A DNA stretch of 45,176 nt from Escherichia phage vB_EcoS-22664BS2, in the sequence record NC_073324.1; one strand, written 5' to 3'. The stretch's first letter is position 1. Each line of letters starts with the position of its first letter. The position numbers were made by a program, and so were the translations under genes. The notes under the pieces are model-generated. The model saw only the letters and a program-made list of their open reading frames with translations. It was not told the origin of the DNA and searched no databases. Below, one piece after another: positions 1-45,176 of the stretch.

Positions 1-51
1 GATTCAGGCCAGGCGCAAAGCGGTCCGCGCCTGTGGATTCCAGAACGGAAA
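1..51. repeat. 51-nt exact repeat of window end (45126..45176); circular-assembly overlap or terminal redundancy
   Basis: First 51 nt are identical to the last 51 nt of the window. Confidence 0.8.
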
Positions 52-7085: not shown

Positions 7086-7110
7086 AAGGCCCCATAAGGG
7101 GCCTTTTTAT
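7086..7110. terminator. terminator between portal (+) and a minus-strand small gene
   Basis: GGCCCC-ATAA-GGGGCC hairpin followed by TTTTT; sits between convergent genes. Confidence 0.6.
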
Positions 7111-7392: not shown

Positions 7393-7427
7393 TTCTAAAT
7401 TCCTTATCTCTCGTTTCGATGCAATGA

Positions 7428-7456
7428 ATAGTACCCTATTATGTTGGTGTCTGCAA
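7428..7456 (-). promoter_or_regulatory. sigma70-like promoter (TTGCAG-N17-TACTAT) for 7111..7392
   Basis: Read on minus strand; member of the conserved promoter family. Confidence 0.5.
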
Positions 7457-9007: not shown

Positions 9008-9036
9008 AAAAGGCCCCATTAAGGGGCCTTAGTTTT
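9008..9036. terminator. bidirectional terminator between convergent genes
   Basis: AAAGGCCCC...GGGGCCTT hairpin with T/A runs on both sides. Confidence 0.6.
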
Positions 9037-9239
9037 CAACGGAATCTTGTGTTTAAATCCTGCTCGTGGACGACCCTCAGAACAGTGTCATAATCCCCGT
9101 ATCTTCCAGGTTCAAATATATCTAATGCCTTGTAAGCAGACATTGCGTCAGGGAAAACCTGCAGAACCTTTTTAACACGGCACAAGTCACCGTCGAACTC
9201 TTCATCGAACTCTTGAACTACTTCGCAAATTGCATACAT
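9036..9239 (-). CDS. hypothetical protein (67 aa), moron-like
   Basis: ORF track; own promoter, GGAGGTG RBS and terminator. Confidence 0.5.
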   Translation of the reverse strand: MYAICEVVQEFDEEFDGDLCRVKKVLQVFPDAMSAYKALDIFEPGRYGDYDTVLRVVHEQDLNTRFR

Positions 9240-9266
9240 TTTTCACCTCCTGCTTAAGTTAACTGA

Positions 9267-9295
9267 ATAGTACCCTATTATATTGGGGTGCGCAA
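9267..9295 (-). promoter_or_regulatory. sigma70-like promoter (TTGCGC-N17-TACTAT) for 9036..9239
   Basis: Conserved promoter family. Confidence 0.5.
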
Positions 9296-9361
9296 ACTAT
9301 TTATTCGACTATTCCAGTTATTCCGCTCAATTGTAAATGTTGGAATAAACTATTCGAATAG

Positions 9362-9390
9362 TTGACTTTTCACTGAAAATGTGCTAAGCT
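9362..9390 (+). promoter_or_regulatory. sigma70-like promoter with extended -10 (TTGACT-N17-TGcTAAGCT) driving ncRNA candidate 1
   Basis: Same promoter architecture repeated at 41851-41879. Confidence 0.5.
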
Positions 9391-9393
9391 CCA

Positions 9394-9597
9394 CCTGAGC
9401 TTGTGAAGTATGAACAAGCGACCGCGGCGCGGGCAGGTAACGGAGCGGGACGTAAGTCCTGAGTGTAGTTACGCTGACGCGTTCGGAAGGGCCATAGTCT
9501 ATTGCTTGTGTAAAAAGTAACTGGTTTACTGAGATTACGCCGTTTCTATGTTTAAATGATAAGGACTAGCGCCCCGCTTTATGGCGGGGCTTTACTT
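9394..9597 (+). ncRNA. candidate structured non-coding RNA, copy 1
   Basis: Promoter upstream and hairpin plus T-run terminator at 9569-9597; first 38 nt identical to 41883-41920, rest aligns with indels. Confidence 0.4.
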
Positions 9598-9614
9598 ATC
9601 GAGAAAGGAGAAAC

Positions 9615-10001
9615 ATGAATCTTAAAGCAACTGTCGTAGCGGGAGCATGTTTCATCATCCTGGCTTACACACACGGCATCTACCAGTACCGCATCGGCTG
9701 GAACGAAGGCCGGGCGAATCTCGTTTCTCAGCAACAGCAGAAAGCACAGGCCGAGATGACTAAGAAAACACAACGGCAGCAGCAGGACGAATCAAAGGCC
9801 GCAGCCGCTGACAACGAAGGCAAGACGAAATCAGAGGTGATCACCCGTGAAGTCGTTAAGTACATTAAAACGCCTGGTCGCAGTGTGTGCGCTTTTGACC
9901 CTGAGCGCGTGCAGCTCAAGTCCCGCGCCGTCGCAAACGCCAACTCCATCCCCGGATACGACGATGATGCAGCCGCCGTGCAAACTGGCAGCGCCAAGTA
10001 G
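9615..10001 (+). CDS. i-spanin (Rz-like)
   Basis: N-terminal TM segment, then Gln/Ala-rich coiled coil; AAGGAG RBS. Confidence 0.6.
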   Translation: MNLKATVVAGACFIILAYTHGIYQYRIGWNEGRANLVSQQQQKAQAEMTKKTQRQQQDESKAAAADNEGKTKSEVITREVVKYIKTPGRSVCAFDPERVQLKSRAVANANSIPGYDDDAAAVQTGSAK

Positions 10002-10110
10002 CGACGCGGACGAGGATTTAGCTATCGACGTTCAGAACGCCGAATGCGTACGGCAACTGAGGCTGAAAGTGTTCATGTTGCAGGATTACGTGAGGAATAT
10101 TCTGGAATAG
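9847..10110 (+). CDS. o-spanin (Rz1-like lipoprotein) in +1 frame overlapping the Rz-like gene
   Basis: Signal peptide with lipobox LSAC, Pro-rich mature region; starts inside the Rz-like ORF and ends beyond it. Confidence 0.55.
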   Translation: MKSLSTLKRLVAVCALLTLSACSSSPAPSQTPTPSPDTTMMQPPCKLAAPSSDADEDLAIDVQNAECVRQLRLKVFMLQDYVRNILE

Positions 10111-10192
10111 TTGCCTTGCATGTTGGAATAATTTATTCTTGACATGTAAATCCGGGTGGCCCGGATTCCAACGTCCAGGGGACATACTGACT

Positions 10193-10894
10193 ATGAATCG
10201 TTTTTTACGTTATCCGTTCCAGGAAGAAGCTGGGGCAGAAGATAAAGCTGGTGGCGGTGACGCTCCTAAAATGTACACAGCCGAAGAAGTGCAGGCGCTA
10301 ATTGAGAAAGAAGTCGCCGGGCTTAAGGCCAATCAGGAAGCATTACTGGCGGAGAAGAAAGAAGCCGCTCGTAAAGCAAGAGAGGCCGAAGAAGAACGGC
10401 AGCGCGCACACCAGGAGGCGTTAAAAGCCGCCGGTAAGATGGACGAGTTCGAAAAGACGATTCGTAGCCAGTATGACCCGGTGTTAGCCGAGAAAGACGG
10501 TCGCATCTCCAGAATGGCAGAGCGTATCCTCGGCAGCGAACGTAAAGCGGTGCTAGGCTCTTTCGCGGGTGACTTTATTACCCCAGAAGCAGTGGACATT
10601 CTTGCGCCGTTCGTTAAGACTGAGTTCGAAGGCGATGATGTGGTTACTAAGTTTGTTGGTGCAGACGGTAACGTAATCACGACTGACCCGGAACAGTTCC
10701 GCAAATACCTGCGCGAACACAAGGCGTTTTCGCATTTGATCAAAGCAAATGCAGCTTCCGGCGGCGGGGCTTCCGGTAGCAAAGGCGGCGGGGCCGCACC
10801 AGCGTTTAAAGACATGAGTGAAGCAGAGCGTTTAGCCCTGTATAAATCGAACCCTGCCGAATTTGAACGGCAACTTAAAGCCCTGAGGAAATAA
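10193..10894 (+). CDS. scaffolding protein (putative)
   Basis: ATG at codon 19 of track ORF; charged coiled-coil-rich protein directly upstream of major capsid protein. Confidence 0.65.
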   Translation: MNRFLRYPFQEEAGAEDKAGGGDAPKMYTAEEVQALIEKEVAGLKANQEALLAEKKEAARKAREAEEERQRAHQEALKAAGKMDEFEKTIRSQYDPVLAEKDGRISRMAERILGSERKAVLGSFAGDFITPEAVDILAPFVKTEFEGDDVVTKFVGADGNVITTDPEQFRKYLREHKAFSHLIKANAASGGGASGSKGGGAAPAFKDMSEAERLALYKSNPAEFERQLKALRK

Positions 10895-10896
10895 TA

Positions 10897-11946
10897 ATGG
10901 CAATTACCACTATCGGCGATATCGTAACTGGCAACATCCCGGTCCTGGCGTCTTATATGACCGAGGACCCGGTAGAAAAAACCGCGTTCTTCCAGTCTGG
11001 TATTCTGACCCCGACCCCATACGCCGCCGAGATTGCCCGCGGCCCGTCCAACGTCGCTAATATTCCTTTCTGGAAAGCGATTGATACCTCTATCGAGCCG
11101 AACTACTCGAACGACGTATACCAGGACATCGCCACCCCGCGTAACGTGCAGACCGGCGAGATGATGGCCCGCGTTGCATACCTGAACGAAGGTTTCGGTC
11201 AGGCGGATTTGACTGTCGAACTGACCAGCCAGAACCCGCTGCAATCCGTAGCGTCCCGTCTGGATAACTTCTGGCAGCGCCAGGCACAACGCCGTCTGAT
11301 TGCTACCGCGCTCGGTCTGTACAACGACAACGTAGCTGCTACCGATGCTTACCACGAGCAGAACGACATGGTTATCGACGTGTCTGCTACTCTGGGCTTC
11401 GATGTGGGCGCGTTCATCGACGCTACCCAGACTATGGGCGATGCTCTGATGGGCAACGGCGGTGAAGTGCTGGGGGCTATCGCGATGCATAGCTTCGTTT
11501 ATGCGCAGGCACGTAAGCAGCAGCTTATCGACTTCATCCGTGACGCGGACAACAACACCATGTTCGCCACCTACCAGGGCTACCGCGTGATTGTTGACGA
11601 CAGCATGACCGTAGTCGGCACTGGCCCGACCCGTAAGTTCATCTCCATCATCTTCGGCAACGGCGCTATCGGTTACGGTGAAGGTTCTCCGTCCAACCCG
11701 CTGGAATACGAGCGCGAAGCGTCCCGCGGCAACGGCGGCGGCGTTGAAACCCTGTGGACCCGTAAGACCTGGTTGCTACATCCGTTTGGTTACAGCTTCA
11801 CCAGCGCAGTAATCACCGGTAACGGCACCGAGACTGTCGCACGTTCTGCTTCCTGGCAGGACCTGGCGAACGCCTCTAACTGGAGCCGTGTTGTTGACCG
11901 TAAGCACGTACCGATTGCCTTCCTGGTAACTGGTGTCGGTGCTTAA
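10897..11946 (+). CDS. major capsid protein
   Basis: 349 aa, follows scaffold, followed by a terminator/attenuator. Confidence 0.85.
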   Translation: MAITTIGDIVTGNIPVLASYMTEDPVEKTAFFQSGILTPTPYAAEIARGPSNVANIPFWKAIDTSIEPNYSNDVYQDIATPRNVQTGEMMARVAYLNEGFGQADLTVELTSQNPLQSVASRLDNFWQRQAQRRLIATALGLYNDNVAATDAYHEQNDMVIDVSATLGFDVGAFIDATQTMGDALMGNGGEVLGAIAMHSFVYAQARKQQLIDFIRDADNNTMFATYQGYRVIVDDSMTVVGTGPTRKFISIIFGNGAIGYGEGSPSNPLEYEREASRGNGGGVETLWTRKTWLLHPFGYSFTSAVITGNGTETVARSASWQDLANASNWSRVVDRKHVPIAFLVTGVGA

Positions 11947-11961
11947 GGTTAAGCTATAATC

Positions 11962-11990
11962 GAGAGGGACTTCGGTCCCTCTTTTCATTT
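11962..11990 (+). terminator. terminator/attenuator after major capsid gene
   Basis: GAGAGGGAC-TTCG-GTCCCTCTT hairpin followed by T-rich run. Confidence 0.55.
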
Positions 11991-12005
11991 ACTAAGAGGT
12001 AAATT

Positions 12006-12305
12006 ATGGTCAAGACCGGAAAAGGCTTGCCGCGCAGCCTTCAGAATGTCGATTTCGGCGACTTTGATATCCCAGTCGCGCCTGCTACTACCAGCGTAGT
12101 TGGTGGGGTTAAAAAATCAGCTACTGTAGCCGCACCTGCGGCGGTTACCGCTGGTAAAGGAGCGCAGTCCGCCGCGGCACCGACTAAGGAAGAGTTCGAC
12201 GCCCTTGTAGCGGAGTACAACAAACTCCGAACCGATGTTACCGCGCTGCGCACTACCGTAGCAAATCTGTTGACTGCGCTTAAAAACGCAGGAACCGTAA
12301 GCTAA
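12006..12305 (+). CDS. hypothetical virion protein (Ala-rich)
   Basis: ORF track; position in head module. Confidence 0.4.
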   Translation: MVKTGKGLPRSLQNVDFGDFDIPVAPATTSVVGGVKKSATVAAPAAVTAGKGAQSAAAPTKEEFDALVAEYNKLRTDVTALRTTVANLLTALKNAGTVS

Positions 12306-12317
12306 AGGAGCTTAAAA

Positions 12318-12668
12318 ATGGTTGATGTAATCAAACGTCGTATTACCGGTGTTTCTGATGATTCTCCTGCCGATGGTCAGGTTGAAATCGATATGGCGAA
12401 TATCTCGCCAGCGTCTTTTTCTACCGCGCTTGCGGCTACCACCGCAGTTACGGTGGGGCAGACTATGACTCTTACCGTAGTGGTAACTGGCGGTCTGGAG
12501 CCGTATTCCTACCAGTGGTACAAAGATAACAACGCCATCGACGGAGCCACCGCAGCTACCTATGCGAAGGCGTCCACTACTACCGCAGATTCAGGCACGT
12601 ATAAAGTGGTTGTTCACGATGTGTATGGTAATATTATCTCCAGCAGCACCGTAGCAACTGTGTCTTAA
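12318..12668 (+). CDS. Ig-like domain protein (possible decoration protein)
   Basis: I-set-like segment PYSYQWYKDNNAIDGA...GTYKVVVHD. Confidence 0.5.
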   Translation: MVDVIKRRITGVSDDSPADGQVEIDMANISPASFSTALAATTAVTVGQTMTLTVVVTGGLEPYSYQWYKDNNAIDGATAATYAKASTTTADSGTYKVVVHDVYGNIISSSTVATVS

Positions 12669-12704
12669 TACAACGGCCCTTCGGGGCCGTAATAAGGAAA
12701 GGTC

Positions 12705-12884
12705 ATGGCAGATAATTACGTAATCCGCGAAAAGTATACCCACGTTGATATCGTTGACGGACAGGTGATGCCTGTTCGCGGTGTGGTAGAAGCGGATGAA
12801 CTGGTTGCAACCCAACCAGACAATGAAGAAGCGCACAACAACGGCGGTGGTACTAAGCGTCGTCGCCGTAAGTCAGAGGAATAA
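12705..12884 (+). CDS. hypothetical small protein (59 aa)
   Basis: Read by eye; AAGGAAAGG RBS; basic C-terminus. Confidence 0.3.
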   Translation: MADNYVIREKYTHVDIVDGQVMPVRGVVEADELVATQPDNEEAHNNGGGTKRRRRKSEE

Positions 12885-12887
12885 TTT

Positions 12888-13400
12888 ATGCCGCTAATCG
12901 TGGAAACTGGGGTGATCGTCCCAAATGCCGACAGTTACATTAGTCTGGCTGACGCCCGCGCGTTAGCGGCTAATTATGGCCTTGAGCTGCCGGAAGACGA
13001 TACCGCAGCAGAGGTGGCCTTACGCAACGGTGCTACTTATGTAGGGCTTGCAGAACCGCAGATGTGCGGTCGTCGAGTATCCGCCGAACAGTCTCTTGCA
13101 TACCCCCGCACCGGCGTTACGTTAAACGGGTTCCCGGTGGTCAACAACGCCATTCCGAAACAGGTGATTCTTGCGCAGGTAATCGCTGCCGCTACATATG
13201 GCGAGGGCACCGAAGTCCGGGCTAACTCAGACGGTCGCGCCGTGCAGACTGAGCGTGTCGAGGGTGCAGTAACAGTGACCTACTTCAACAATGGCAACAG
13301 TGGCGCTACGACCGCGATTACCGCTGCTGACGACGCTTTACGCCCGTTATTGTGTGGCGGTCTTAACAATGGTTTCTCGTTTAACGTGTACCGGGGTTAA
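12888..13400 (+). CDS. head-tail joining protein (putative)
   Basis: ORF track; position between capsid and tail genes. Confidence 0.45.
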   Translation: MPLIVETGVIVPNADSYISLADARALAANYGLELPEDDTAAEVALRNGATYVGLAEPQMCGRRVSAEQSLAYPRTGVTLNGFPVVNNAIPKQVILAQVIAAATYGEGTEVRANSDGRAVQTERVEGAVTVTYFNNGNSGATTAITAADDALRPLLCGGLNNGFSFNVYRG

Positions 13401-13402
13401 AA

Positions 13403-14017
13403 ATGGCGAAGACTAAAACAGAGATATTCACTCTAATCGGTTCAGAGCTACCGGACAACACAACCGGGCTTATCACGCCAGCGAAGCTACGCGAGGTAAT
13501 GACTCAGATGGCGGACTCACCTATTTACGCCACCCCCGGTGTTAAGGAGGTTGAAGTTCTCCGCGCTGCGTCGACAGTAGCGCAAGCGCCTACCGCAGTA
13601 GATACGGCATTGCAGGTATCGTTCGGCTCTGCTCAGGGAAGCGCATCTGACCCTGTAATGATTAATGCCGCTGGGCTGGTTACGTTCAACACCGCGGGTA
13701 ACTACGCCGTTCGCATCAAGTTACAGGCCGGTCGCTCCGGCGCTAGCGGAACGTCTATCCTGTTGTCGCGTATCCTCATTAACGGCGCTCAGTACGGCTC
13801 ACCAGCAGCTACGAAACTTGTTAGCTCGGAAACCACCATCCCTATTGAATCCCGTGTAGTGATTAACCCAACCGCCGGGCAAACATTCGCCGTTCAGATT
13901 ATGCGAGATAGCGCCGGGACTAACTTCGGAGGCGTATACCCGCAGGTGGCTACTGTAACTGCATGGGGCACGGCACCGTCCGCGCTACTGGTTATTTCGA
14001 GACTGGAGGCTGCCTGA
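13403..14017 (+). CDS. virion structural protein (putative)
   Basis: ORF track; structural module. Confidence 0.45.
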   Translation: MAKTKTEIFTLIGSELPDNTTGLITPAKLREVMTQMADSPIYATPGVKEVEVLRAASTVAQAPTAVDTALQVSFGSAQGSASDPVMINAAGLVTFNTAGNYAVRIKLQAGRSGASGTSILLSRILINGAQYGSPAATKLVSSETTIPIESRVVINPTAGQTFAVQIMRDSAGTNFGGVYPQVATVTAWGTAPSALLVISRLEAA

Positions 14018-14376
14018 TGAGCACAGCTTTCAGTAAACGTATGCAAGGCGTGGGCACACGCCTGCTAACCAAATTTGGTAGCACGGTATCTTTGGTTCGC
14101 GCTGGCTCGAAAGTGTGGGATGAAGTTCTCGGTGAATACGTCTGGTCTGCGGATGAAGTGTTGCCGTTGAAGGCCGTTCCGGTTCCGGTAAACGCGGGGC
14201 TGGTTAACGGTACGACGATTCAGGCTGGCGACATGATTGTTAAAGCGGATTACAGCGTCGTTCCGAAGATGGAAGACAAGGTGCAATTTGGCGGCGAGCA
14301 ATGGTCTATCGAAGCCATTGAGAAGAAGATAGTTAACGATGATGTCGTGGCATACTTTATTCAGGTGAGAAAATGA
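14017..14376 (+). CDS. head-tail joining protein (putative)
   Basis: ATG at codon 19 of track ORF, overlapping upstream stop. Confidence 0.45.
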   Translation: MSTAFSKRMQGVGTRLLTKFGSTVSLVRAGSKVWDEVLGEYVWSADEVLPLKAVPVPVNAGLVNGTTIQAGDMIVKADYSVVPKMEDKVQFGGEQWSIEAIEKKIVNDDVVAYFIQVRK

Positions 14377-14768
14377 GTTTTGCGCTTGATGTCTCTAAGT
14401 TCGTGGAAAAGGCGAAGAAGAACCCTGAGAAGGTGATGCGTCAGGTGTCTATCAAGCTGTTTTCCGCTATTATAAAGGCGAGTCCGGTAGATACTGGTCG
14501 GTTTCGCATGAACTGGATGGCATCTGGCGGTACTCCTGCTTCCGGGATTACGGATGCTACGGATAAATCAGGAAACACAGCAACCGGAAACGCTACAAGT
14601 TTCGTGCTGAAAGCCACCGACTGGCATGAGTTCACGCTGACAAATAACCTGCCGTATGCACAACGGCTGGAGTATGGCTGGTCGCAACAGGCCCCGCAAG
14701 GATTCGTCAGGACTAACGTGTCCCGCTTCCAGCAACTCATTAACGAAGAAGCTAGCAAGGTGAGATGA
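14373..14768 (+). CDS. tail completion protein (putative)
   Basis: ORF track; ATGA coupling. Confidence 0.45.
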   Translation: MSFALDVSKFVEKAKKNPEKVMRQVSIKLFSAIIKASPVDTGRFRMNWMASGGTPASGITDATDKSGNTATGNATSFVLKATDWHEFTLTNNLPYAQRLEYGWSQQAPQGFVRTNVSRFQQLINEEASKVR

Positions 14769-15181
14769 TGGGCTACTTTGAGGACTTAACAAAAGCGTTT
14801 GATGTGCCGCTGGTAGCCTTCGGAACCACCAACGGCATCAAGGTAGCGCTTGAAAACATCGACGCGCCGACGTCAACAGATACGCCGTATCTGGCAAGTT
14901 ACATGTTGCTGGCGGATACCGAGCAGGCTGACTTATTCTTCACGGAACAACGCGCCGGTGTCTATCAGATAGACATTAACTACGCATCGGTGAAAGGTAG
15001 CGCGCCAATCAATAAAATGGCAGACTTACTTAACACGGCGTTTAAATCAGGTAAGGCATTTTCGCGTAACGACATCTGCGCCGAGGTTCAATCGGTTAGC
15101 CTGGGGCCGCTGATTGTAGAAAACGGATGGGCCAAACGACCATTGTCAATTAACTTTATTGCATTCACCAAGAGGCTGTGA
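14765..15181 (+). CDS. tail terminator/completion protein (putative)
   Basis: ORF track; directly before major tail protein. Confidence 0.45.
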   Translation: MMGYFEDLTKAFDVPLVAFGTTNGIKVALENIDAPTSTDTPYLASYMLLADTEQADLFFTEQRAGVYQIDINYASVKGSAPINKMADLLNTAFKSGKAFSRNDICAEVQSVSLGPLIVENGWAKRPLSINFIAFTKRL

Positions 15182-16354: not shown

Positions 16355-16380
16355 AAGGCCCCTTTCGGGGCCTTTTTCTT
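16355..16380. terminator. bidirectional terminator
   Basis: AAGGCCCC-TTTC-GGGGCCTT hairpin plus T-run, between convergent genes. Confidence 0.6.
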
Positions 16381-18777: not shown

Positions 18778-18818
18778 GGTGTAGCTCCTGTTTGGGATAA
18801 CATCGTTGGTGTAAGTGA

Positions 18819-18847
18819 ATAGTACACTATTATATTGGGGTGTGCAA
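18819..18847 (-). promoter_or_regulatory. sigma70-like promoter (TTGCAC-N17-TACTAT) for the minus-strand cassette
   Basis: Conserved promoter family. Confidence 0.5.
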
Positions 18848-28905: not shown

Positions 28906-28932
28906 TAAGGCCCCAAACGGGGCCTTTTCTCT
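28906..28932 (+). terminator. intrinsic terminator after tailspike
   Basis: AGGCCCC-AAAC-GGGGCCT hairpin plus TTTT. Confidence 0.6.
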
Positions 28933-31895: not shown

Positions 31896-32180
31896 CTAAC
31901 TATAATAGTTCGCTATTAGGTCGTCAACCTGTTTAAACGAACCAACGACAAAAACATTTGCACCGCGTTTACGGAATCTTTCATGCTCGCGTAACTGGTG
32001 GGGGTCAGGCTTCGTGTTTTCGTCTTTCTTAATCTCGACGAACCAGATGATACCGCCGGGGAGAATTACCAGCAGGTCCATGGCGGCTCGCCGGCCTTCA
32101 AATGCCATCTTGCGAACGAGGCCACCAATGGCCTCGAATCGCTCTTTTGCGTATTTCTGAATCTTGCCTTCCGGGGTCAT
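31896..32180 (-). CDS. VRR-NUC nuclease
   Basis: DLLVILPGG...FVEIKK pattern (PD-(D/E)XK core). Confidence 0.6.
   Translation of the reverse strand: MTPEGKIQKYAKERFEAIGGLVRKMAFEGRRAAMDLLVILPGGIIWFVEIKKDENTKPDPHQLREHERFRKRGANVFVVGSFKQVDDLIANYYS
31899..31927 (-). promoter_or_regulatory. sigma70-like promoter (TTGACG-N17-TATAGT)
   Basis: Conserved promoter family; lies in the 3' end of the upstream gene. Confidence 0.45.
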
Positions 32181-34727: not shown

Positions 34728-34753
34728 AGTAAAAAGGCCCAATGAAGGGCCTT
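34728..34753 (-). terminator. hairpin terminator/attenuator upstream of polymerase
   Basis: AAGGCCC...GGGCCTT hairpin followed by T-run on minus strand. Confidence 0.5.
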
Positions 34754-34772
34754 AGTTAAATTGATTCAGATA

Positions 34773-35454: not shown

Positions 35455-35483
35455 ACTATAATAGCTAACTATTCAGGTGTCAA
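35455..35483 (-). promoter_or_regulatory. sigma70-like promoter (TTGACA-N17-TATAGT)
   Basis: Consensus -35, 17-nt spacer. Confidence 0.5.
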
Positions 35484-38260: not shown

Positions 38261-38289
38261 ACTATAATAGCGAACTATTCACATGTCAA
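38261..38289 (-). promoter_or_regulatory. sigma70-like promoter (TTGACA-N17-TATAGT)
   Basis: Consensus elements; divergent from the XRE gene promoter. Confidence 0.5.
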
Positions 38290-41850: not shown

Positions 41851-41879
41851 TTGACTTTTACTAAAAAATATGGTAAGCT
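41851..41879 (+). promoter_or_regulatory. sigma70-like promoter with extended -10 (TTGACT-N17-TGgTAAGCT) driving ncRNA candidate 2
   Basis: Same architecture as 9362-9390. Confidence 0.5.
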
Positions 41880-41882
41880 CAG

Positions 41883-42095
41883 CCTGAGCTTGTGAAGTAT
41901 GAACAAGCGACCGCGGCGCGCGGCAGGCGAAACGAGCACGTGTAGCGTGTGGAGTGAGGCTCGCTAGCGCGTTTGGGAGGCCCAAAGTCTATTGTAAATC
42001 CCACCTAAATATCTAAGTTACTGATTTGCCGTAGGTCAGAACCGCAAGCTCACTCACTCACTCTTGGTGCCTTCGGCACCCCGTTCGTTTCGTTT
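41883..42095 (+). ncRNA. candidate structured non-coding RNA, copy 2
   Basis: 38-nt block identical to 9394-9431; ends in GGTGCC-TTCG-GGCACC hairpin with T-rich tail. Confidence 0.4.
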
Positions 42096-42147
42096 CGCTC
42101 GCCATCCCATTAAACAAAAGAATCACAACGGCAACGTAACTATTCTC

Positions 42148-42176
42148 TTGCACACCCCAACATAATAGGATACTAT
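42148..42176 (+). promoter_or_regulatory. sigma70-like promoter (TTGCAC-N17-TACTAT) for early operon
   Basis: Conserved promoter family; leader ATCGAAACGAGACAGAGGAG. Confidence 0.55.
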
Positions 42177-42210
42177 TCACTTATCGAAACGAGACAGAGG
42201 AGTGAGGGTT

Positions 42211-42399
42211 ATGTTTAAGAAGGGTCAGTTGGTTAAAGCCGTAGATTATTATTATGGTATTGTTGAAACAGAGTCTGTCGTTTTTCCCGGAACTTATAGG
42301 GTGCGTTTTCTCGTGAAAAGATTAGGTGCGGTAGATTGGTTCCGTGAAGACGAGCTAACACTCATCGGCAACAATTTTAAATTCAAAGGGGCGGAGTGA
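42211..42399 (+). CDS. hypothetical early protein
   Basis: ATG at codon 4 of track ORF with GAGGAG RBS. Confidence 0.5.
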   Translation: MFKKGQLVKAVDYYYGIVETESVVFPGTYRVRFLVKRLGAVDWFREDELTLIGNNFKFKGAE

Positions 42400-43270: not shown

Positions 43271-43305
43271 CAGGTCAATAGGTTACTATTTGTCTTTGTG
43301 ACTTA

Positions 43306-43418: not shown

Positions 43419-43447
43419 TTGCACGCTGAGATGGAATAGGCTACTAT
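43419..43447 (+). promoter_or_regulatory. sigma70-like promoter (TTGCAC-N17-TACTAT)
   Basis: Conserved promoter family; leader ACGAGAGGAGAGACAGAG. Confidence 0.5.
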
Positions 43448-43477
43448 TCATTCACACAAACGAGAGGAGAGACAGAG

Positions 43478-45022: not shown

Positions 45023-45176
45023 TGTCTCTTGCAACTGACATCCTGAAACGAAGCGGCCTTGCGCCGCTGTCACCGAGAGCGAAGACACGTATACACAAGC
45101 GCCGCCGTAACGCGCTGTACCCCGAGATTCAGGCCAGGCGCAAAGCGGTCCGCGCCTGTGGATTCCAGAACGGAAA
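45022..45176 (+). CDS. N-terminal part of wrap-around gene (continues at 1..190)
   Basis: ATG overlapping upstream stop; frame continues through the 51-nt end overlap. Confidence 0.4.
   Translation, partial: MSLATDILKRSGLAPLSPRAKTRIHKRRRNALYPEIQARRKAVRACGFQNG

Follow-up and report, generated by a model that had tools for sequence, protein, structure and literature searches.

The complete genome of Escherichia phage vB_EcoS-22664BS2 (NC_073324.1; genus Kagunavirus, Guernseyvirinae), which at its full length of 45,176 nucleotides (nt) is the window analyzed here, contains a conserved RNA element behind a promoter at 9362–9390. As judged from comparison with its homologs, this element is the promoter-proximal, non-coding and structured 5′ leader of a late operon encoding the i-spanin/o-spanin, scaffold, major capsid, connector, and tail-tube proteins, and a paralogous promoter-plus-RNA module is placed ahead of a second rightward operon. 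The RNA most likely exerts its effect on the transcript to which it belongs and not as a free small RNA (sRNA). By the comparisons described below it constitutes a new RNA family, the general kind of which, a phage cis-leader or non-coding RNA, is known. Phages of the Guernseyvirinae (Kagunavirus, Jerseyvirus, Cornellvirus) are among the commonest isolates from E. coli and Salmonella and find use in therapy cocktails as well as in model collections; to our knowledge, their gene regulation is essentially unstudied. A covarying RNA that heads a capsid/spanin operon behind a dedicated promoter, is conserved in several hundred sequenced genomes, and is not contained in Rfam offers a concrete handle on the late programme, which these phages run with the host polymerase only.

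A promoter-linked RNA fold in two copies

The region had originally been predicted, from the letters alone, to hold the first of two paralogous candidate phage sRNAs. The repeat on which this prediction was based is real: positions 9394–9431 are identical to 41883–41920 over all 38 nt, which none of 100 shuffles matched, and with the promoters included the repeat spans 70 nt at 87% identity. Homologs were gathered from IMG/VR and from GenBank phages, and a covariance model (R1) built from Kagunavirus sequences alone finds both loci (copy 1 with 138 bits; copy 2 with 96.6 bits, E=6.5e-21), which together with the repeat confirms a two-member family within the genome. Since the first ~31 nt are invariant across nearly all Kagunavirus copies at both loci, the 38-nt identity is to be attributed to constraint and not to a recent duplication. 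Further downstream, alignment confirms that the similarity is limited to short blocks split by indels, as had been noticed before; however, one of the blocks listed as shared, GTGTAG, is not homologous, as it belongs to an internal loop in copy 1 and to the loop of P4 in copy 2 (for the helices see below). The copy-1 region as such is 95–97% identical to about 160 records of E. coli and Salmonella phages.

Both copies are preceded on the + strand by the same type of promoter. That of copy 1 (9362–9390) consists of the −35 hexamer TTGACT (9362–9367), a 17-nt spacer, a TG extension (9382–9383), and the −10 hexamer TAAGCT (9385–9390), and that of copy 2 (41851–41879) reads TTGACT-N17-TAAGCT with the TG at 41871–41872. 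The class TTGACTTTT-N11-TGnTAAGCT has exactly these two matches in the window. It is kept in all homologs, with −35, TG, and −10 conserved between Kagunavirus and Jerseyvirus, where the promoter takes the form TAGACT-N17-TGnTACGCT. The −10 hexamer is weak, agreeing with the consensus at three of six positions, and because of this, with the conserved TG extension being needed, both promoters were missed by a generic promoter scan. Thus, while the earlier claim of a strong promoter holds with regard to a conserved class occurring twice, the strength itself was an assumption, and the promoter depends on its TGn. The first transcribed nucleotide had been placed at C9394, whereas the spacing indicates that transcription probably starts at G9397 or A9398.

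Each promoter is followed by ~105 nt of folded RNA, in which a 5′ hairpin, P1, precedes a long composite helix, P2-P3-P4, that ends in a GUAA loop. In copy 1, structure prediction places P1 at 9399–9419, with GCUUGU (9399–9404) and ACAAGC (9414–9419) enclosing the loop GAAGUAUGA, and the RNAalifold consensus places the composite helix at 9422–9486. Here, P2 is formed by CCG/C-bulge/GGCGC (9422–9430) with GCGUU-CGG (9479–9486) and includes two tandem G·U pairs, P3 pairs 9432–9438 with 9471–9478, and P4 pairs 9446–9451 with 9456–9461, capped by the GUAA tetraloop (9452–9455). P1 is invariant in most Kagunavirus copies, some variants of copy 2 having GCUUGUG/CGCAAGC. Pairing was evaluated on 33 distinct homologs in an alignment that had itself been fitted to the covariance model, with slid-partner and 500-shuffle controls: 96.9% of the cells hold standard pairs, compared to 35–45% when the partners were slid, nine pairs show changes on both sides, and neither the observed pairing nor the covariation score was reached in any of the 500 shuffles. 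Helix 3 is paired in 97.9% of cells with five pairs altered on both sides, P4 has both sides altered at four of its five pairs, and one pair of P2 occurs as C-G, U-A, and A-U. The same helices are obtained with RNAalifold from a free MAFFT alignment of 21 sequences. The tandem G·U pairs are kept in 30 of the 32 rows with letters at these pairs, and the fold therefore exists only in the + sense, which argues for an RNA and not for a DNA hairpin. The two local hairpins noticed earlier (GCTTGT/ACAAGC, now P1, and GGAC-GUAA-GUCC, now P4) are hence part of a covarying structure. Two further helices were considered and rejected. For a pseudoknot joining AGUAUG of the P1 loop to CAUACU of the tail, the key position varies as C, G, A, or U without compensation, and the Jerseyvirus loop differs. 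A closing helix P0 (CCU/AGG) is disrupted, with no compensating change, in 5 of the 32 rows that have letters there and would probably lie outside the transcript given the predicted start.

Searches for known RNAs yielded no counterpart. Nothing in the whole window reached Rfam gathering thresholds, with chance-level matches in the two loci appearing only at E<=10, so that a known Rfam family does not explain the element; likewise, no curated covariance model of a riboswitch matches it. A tRNA/tmRNA scan and BLAST searches of E. coli genomes were negative as well. The pattern TTCGGAAGGGCC-N5-CTATTG gave seven matches in unrelated metagenome-assembled genomes, where a rough estimate expects about four by chance, and these matches were accordingly discarded as homologs. 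A literature search returned no description of this RNA. One transcriptome study of a Kagunavirus, vB_Eco_K1B4, gives gene-level values only (PMC12645636).

The late leader, its second copy, and its relatives

In copy 1, the fold is followed by a conserved unpaired tail, AAGGGCC-AUAGU-CUAUUGC (9487–9505), which holds the motif M1 (AUAGUCUAUUG, 9494–9504). Tails of this type are conserved in copy 1, copy 2, and Jerseyvirus, and the 10-mer AUAGUCUAUU occurs within the window only at the two RNA loci. From 9506 to 9570 the leader is A/U-rich and less structured; the alignment of Kagunavirus with Jerseyvirus reveals a conserved GAGAUUACGCCGU in this part, and no shared consensus structure was found from 9506 onward except for the hairpin downstream. 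This hairpin, GCCCCGCU-UUAU-GGCGGGGC with the tail UUUACUU (9571–9597), was detected by the terminator scan as a stem of eight pairs, seven of them GC (9571–9590), followed by a T-run (9591–9597; tail TTTACTTATC), and is a probable leaky intrinsic terminator. Its stem is kept by compensatory changes (GCCCUGC/GCAGGGC, GCCCGGC/GCCGGGC, GCCCGAC/GUCGGGC). An internal promoter made up of the tail motifs CUAUUG and UAAGUWAC, the latter ~10–25 nt downstream, was rejected because the spacing fits copy 2 only.

The closing hairpin ends 18 nt ahead of the i-spanin start at 9615. On the + strand, terminators were called at 9571, at 11962 (11962–11983, after the capsid gene), and at 16355 (16355–16374, the end of the operon), and no promoter-like site was called from 9597 to 14990, a range that comprises the spanin, scaffold, and capsid genes, although the scan is insensitive and might pass over a promoter. 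The distance to the spanin ATG and the lack of a called promoter before 14990 together imply that the RNA is a 5′ leader and not a free-standing gene. The original prediction of a self-contained promoter-to-terminator sRNA gene is therefore not upheld, even though the Kagunavirus leader may in addition release a terminated by-product of ~200 nt. The gene order can be followed in the close relative Bas70, in which terminase, portal, head-morphogenesis, and decoration genes and then a small reverse gene lie to the left of copy 1, and Rz-like spanins, scaffold, and major head protein genes lie to its right.

The whole leader, from the promoter through the spanin ribosome-binding site, is homologous in Jerseyvirus, where copy 1 is syntenic. 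The blocks conserved between the two genera are the promoter, ACCGCGGYGCGG, CGCRUUCGGAAGGSCC, CUAUUGCUU, AGAUUMCGCCGU, the hairpin, and the Shine-Dalgarno sequence. Model R1 finds the Jerseyvirus loci with the same architecture at 31–39 bits, with P1 replaced at the same position by an unrelated small hairpin, ACGCU-UUC-AGCGU. The closing hairpin of Jerseyvirus is followed by UUAGCGU and not by a U-run. Salmonella phage SLMP1, a Jerseyvirus, naturally lacks P3-P4, and the minimal core is therefore ~55 nt long, consisting of two adjacent hairpins and the unpaired tail.

In Cornellvirus Shemara, Pantoea phage AH01, and three IMG/VR contigs (L073 6975–7290; L072 12170–12480; L081, L082, L083), the same site holds a larger and different leader of ~290 nt with several hairpins. 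Its promoter (TGTATAAT) is a perfect extended −10 promoter, and the RNA comprises a closing helix UUGACC/GGUCAA as well as three covarying hairpins (GAAA and GUAA loops). A distal hairpin has a C-rich arm complementary to the Shine-Dalgarno region; a terminator is absent. Model R1 gave no match in Cornellvirus, in Pantoea phage AH01, or at the copy-2 locus of Bas70. Common to this leader and the Kagunavirus RNA are the hairpin GGNC-GUAA-GNCC-UG(G)AGU and AUAGUCUAUU directly after the closing helix, and these local motifs suggest that the two are probably related, with the Cornellvirus-type leader probably constituting a second RNA family. Since a leader lies directly upstream of the i-spanin gene in Kagunavirus, Jerseyvirus, and Cornellvirus alike, a structured leader at this site is a subfamily-wide feature. 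The comparison also qualifies the terminator of the original prediction. A hairpin was found by the scan in both copies, with a poorer tail in copy 2, but it makes a convincing terminator only in Kagunavirus, and the missing U-run in Jerseyvirus and missing terminator in the Cornellvirus-type leader speak against a discrete sRNA unit.

Copy 2 is located between a divergent helix-turn-helix gene and small rightward genes that lead to holins, endolysin, and terminase. Its structured domain (41883–41995) has the P2-P3-P4 architecture of copy 1 with different P3 and P4 sequences, a P1 formed by 41888–41893 with 41903–41908, and the tail GGCCC-AAAGU-CUAUUGU. The remainder (41996–42097) contains UAAGUUACUGAUUUGCCGUAGGUCAG, (CTCA)3 at 42049–42062, and the hairpin GGUGCC-UUC-GGCACC (42066–42080) with a poorer tail, CCGTTCGTTT, in which the U-rich run is interrupted by C and G. 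The (CTCA)3 microsatellite has about three extra units in the relative L006 and looks slippage-prone. Further downstream, an operator-type promoter (TTGCAC-N17-TACTAT at 42148–42180, with AATAG-N4-CTATT in its spacer) presumably serves the small genes starting at 42211, and with this separate promoter these genes do not rely solely on that of copy 2.

Only about 41 of 187 related phage records contain two copies of the domain. Where present, the 5′ module of copy 2 (promoter, P1-P4, and conserved motif) is followed by one of two 3′ tails that are unrelated to each other. In Bas70 (L071 25260–25520) and in Jerseyvirus f2SE (L046 11160–11460), other modules take its place, so that copy 2 is not essential there. 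These alternatives are promoter-plus-hairpin modules, for example GUUGACGAACCCUC-CCC-GAGGGAUUCGUCAAC, and have in common with the copy-2 locus only the distal tail GCCGUAGAUUCGCAACCGUAAAA and a terminator. Judged by this exchange of parts, the locus is a mosaic hotspot.

Proposed read-through control and competing explanations

Of the ways in which the leader might act, we tentatively favor a cis control of transcriptional read-through resembling that of put or nut sites, while considering it possible and not yet probable. The host sigma-70 RNA polymerase would start at ~9397, and the nascent RNA would fold into the 5′-terminal hairpin P1 and the bulged P2-P3-P4, followed by the conserved unpaired tail. 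This domain would then act in cis, on the transcript or on the complex producing it, and promote read-through of the leaky leader terminator (9571–9597) and of the post-capsid terminator (11962–11983), the polymerase being made termination-resistant as by the put RNAs of HK022 or by nut/boxA-type sites. Complexes that still terminate would give rise to the ~200-nt by-product RNA. Inferred in this scheme are where transcription starts, that it actually terminates, that the domain acts in cis, and the mechanism of antitermination itself. The reading is favored because of the promoter-coupled layout of two copies at operon heads, the compact two-hairpin core, its portability, and the leaky terminators downstream; the combination of one 5′ module with different 3′ tails also fits an autonomous co-transcriptional element.

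The closest known system would be put of HK022, an RNA of ~70 nt with two stems that exists as the paralogous pair putL/putR (PMC9378689). As in that system, each of two operons is headed by one of two paralogous promoter-proximal RNAs (here behind the promoters at 9362 and 41851), a layout also shared by nutL/nutR, the core is compact with two adjacent bulged stem-loops (~55 nt in SLMP1 compared to ~70 nt for put), and intrinsic terminators follow with no dedicated protein being evident. In contrast to put, the element described here is found in virulent siphoviruses, precedes a late and not an early operon, and is missing its second copy in most relatives. Moreover, put acts in cis and independently of proteins via the beta′ zinc-binding domain of RNA polymerase, whereas for the present element only the terminators downstream are seen.

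The arrangement in Kagunavirus also resembles that of lambda PR′-6S-tR′, in which a promoter, an untranslated leader of ~200 nt, and a terminator lie directly upstream of lysis and morphogenesis genes and a short terminated by-product is likewise expected. This resemblance is weak or absent in Jerseyvirus and Cornellvirus, with no terminator formed by the hairpin there. Unlike the lambda system, Bas70 has no annotated Q-like gene, and selection acts here on the RNA structure itself, while the 6S leader is not known to form a conserved covarying fold. That a terminated by-product can gain a function in trans is known from StxS, an sRNA derived from a lambda-type late leader (PMC7547250). With nut and the boxB-boxA sites of rrn operons the element shares the order of hairpin(s) and a short conserved single-stranded motif, as well as identical sequences in two operon leaders. 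M1 of SLMP1 (GCUCUAUU) loosely resembles boxA (GCUCUUUA), agreeing at four to six of eight positions and varying between phages. The hairpin loops are not conserved across genera.

Several observations weigh against control of read-through. There is no sequence similarity to put: model R1 gave no match in HK022, and local alignments to putL/putR had z-scores of −0.4 to 1.5, compared to 8.7 for putL against putR. Rfam is silent on this point, since an Rfam scan of the HK022 immunity region returned no put family, and the lack of an Rfam match does therefore not speak against a put-like element. The rarity of copy 2 among related records, the different module at its locus in others such as Bas70, and the separate promoter of the genes behind it also count against such a role. 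The Cornellvirus leader leads only to the spanin genes, which are followed by a strong terminator and a convergent gene, a poor fit with processive antitermination, and the Jerseyvirus hairpin without a U-run would perhaps leave little termination to overcome. No N-like, arginine-rich small protein was found, and no Q-like product is present in the Bas70 annotation, whose small hypothetical proteins were not profile-searched. Finally, a 5′-terminal hairpin with a structured domain would fit mRNA stabilization or an operator for a protein or ligand equally well.

It appears rather doubtful whether the element goes so far as to represent a new class of self-sufficient RNA that reprograms host RNA polymerase (anti-pausing/antitermination) in virulent siphoviruses of E. 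coli and Salmonella or, alternatively, a novel leader that senses a ligand and thereby sets the timing of spanin and late-gene expression. In the former case, it would be the first put-like element outside lambdoid prophages and a portable cassette of promoter plus antiterminator for late genes. With any polymerase-modifying or signal-sensing function, it would add to a rare type of RNA regulators and provide synthetic biology with a compact, portable part, while a mere mRNA stabilizer would still constitute a new RNA family.

Among the competing explanations, a stable sRNA acting in trans as riboregulator, protein sponge, or anti-defence decoy fares best, albeit as an unlikely one. Its product would be the ~200-nt terminated transcript or a ~105-nt 5′ domain cleaved off in the A/U-rich tail, with read-through into the spanin genes being incidental. 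A conserved promoter of its own, the terminator-like hairpin of Kagunavirus, and a compact, GC-rich, stable fold with a GNRA loop and a 5′-terminal hairpin would suit such an RNA. The same applies to copy 2, which forms a separate unit ahead of genes with a promoter of their own at a locus that is mosaic between phages like many accessory loci, and to the conserved unpaired motifs, which could be a seed or a protein-binding site. However, copy 1 is always fused to the spanin 5′ untranslated region (UTR), the best duplexes predicted by RNAduplex with phage translation-initiation regions were no better than those of shuffled controls, and no similarity to E. coli genomes was found. In addition, UUUACUU is a poor tail for Hfq binding, and the terminator with a long U tail expected of Hfq-type sRNAs is not found across homologs, which end in UUUACUU in Kagunavirus, in UUAGCGU in Jerseyvirus, and without a terminator in the Cornellvirus type.

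Somewhat less likely still is a leader that stabilizes or processes mRNA, either blocking 5′-end-dependent decay by RNase E/RppH or forming an RNase III/E site, and leaves the polymerase unaffected. A hairpin at the extreme 5′ end is the classic arrangement of 5′ stabilizers such as the ompA 5′ UTR, and with a start at 9397/9398, P1 would begin 1–2 nt from the 5′ end and be followed by a long bulged helix, comparable also to the R sites of T7. Non-homologous structured modules at the same loci in other phages suggest a generic need for structure, and P3-P4 is dispensable in SLMP1. Yet this natural deletion would also remove any RNase III substrate of the T7 type, and the Jerseyvirus P1 would have only 3–5 bp given the predicted start. 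Furthermore, the conservation of primary sequence, including the unpaired and bulged nucleotides and the P1 loop, goes far beyond what a generic stabilizer needs.

We consider it improbable that the leader is a riboswitch-like or protein-responsive attenuator, in which P1-P4 would bind a metabolite or a phage or host protein and thereby set termination at the hairpin or translation of the spanin genes. The layout is canonical for this, with a structured domain, a spacer, and a terminator-like hairpin beside the Shine-Dalgarno sequence. In its favor are also a conserved core with variable peripheral stems, the GNRA loops and multi-helix junction of the Cornellvirus-type leader, and the occurrence of one domain ahead of two operons with different tails. 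Against it stand the missing match to any known riboswitch class, the minimal core of SLMP1, which consists of two plain hairpins, and the fact that no candidate RNA-binding partner turned up. Neither inspection nor the consensus fold of the tail revealed a conserved, mutually exclusive pairing between the domain and the leader hairpin.

A function at the level of DNA, be it as operator array, origin or single-strand initiation signal, or packaging site, is very unlikely. M1 resembles the half-sites of a promoter/operator motif occurring nine times in the window (AATAG-N4-CTATT, described below) and a palindrome abuts the −35 hexamer, but conservation of M1 is confined to its CTATT half, the element always points in the direction of its promoter, and the helices are kept by compensatory changes and contain conserved G·U pairs that would be A·C mismatches on the other strand.

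A small protein gene can practically be dismissed: the 36-amino-acid (aa) open reading frame (ORF) MNKRPRR..., although intact at many Kagunavirus copy-1 loci and listed as a hypothetical protein in several records including that of Bas70, suffers frameshifts or stops in the copy-1 variants L003, L005, and L013 and at all copy-2 loci, lacks an ATG in Jerseyvirus and in the copy-2 variants L010/L034, and has its start codon inside the P1 loop without a Shine-Dalgarno sequence. The element is therefore non-coding, in agreement with the earlier suggestion, based on the loss of frame and the poor ribosome-binding site, that it functions at the RNA level; covariation and the strand-specific G·U pairs point in the same direction. 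The comparative data hence contradict the hypothetical protein annotated here in several GenBank records. Leader mini-ORFs (MFK* and a UUG start-stop) are not conserved and were rejected.

Operator-type palindromes and repeated hairpins

Next to the RNA itself, a number of motifs in and around the two loci were recorded. The palindrome CTATTCGAATAG (9350–9361), read from the + strand, directly abuts the −35 hexamer of copy 1 and is a possible regulator site. It is conserved at Kagunavirus copy-1 loci and missing from copy 2, while Jerseyvirus has GAATACTTTATTC 6 nt further upstream. In addition, complementarity between the −10 region and the bases transcribed first (AAGCTC-N-GAGCTT; 9386–9403 and 41875–41892) creates an inverted repeat spanning the start site that would compete with P1 in transcripts entering from upstream. 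Jerseyvirus differs in that its −10 sequence (ACGCT) is a repeat of the 5′ arm of P1.

The palindrome AATAG-N4-CTATT occurs nine times in the window, compared to 0.01 expected occurrences (7427–7440, 9266–9279, 18818–18831, 31904–31917, 35460–35473, 38266–38279, 42164–42177, 43277–43290, and 43435–43448). Every copy lies within the spacer of a sigma-70-like promoter (TTGACA/TTGCRC-N17-TATAGT/TACTAT) in either direction, and the motif looks like a phage-wide operator for one regulator. In a publication on fBC-Eco01 it was labelled as “phage RNA polymerase promoters,” and the motif is all that is listed by way of “phage promoters” in a Kagunavirus paper; the annotations of the related phages examined contain no phage polymerase gene. 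In Kagunavirus, a promoter of this operator type also precedes a 67-aa gene on the minus strand (9036–9239), situated between the terminator of the decoration gene and the copy-1 promoter. This gene is absent from the same position in Jerseyvirus.

Near-identical hairpins of the form AAGGCCCC-N4-GGGGCCTT are found at module boundaries (7086–7105, 9010–9030, 16355–16374, 28907–28926, and 34735–34755). The three within the scanned stretch, at 7086, 9010, and 16355, were called terminator-like, two of them on both strands, and all five look like a reused standard part. The first 51 nt of the window (1–51) are exactly duplicated at its end (45126–45176), the assembly thus being circularly closed or terminally redundant.

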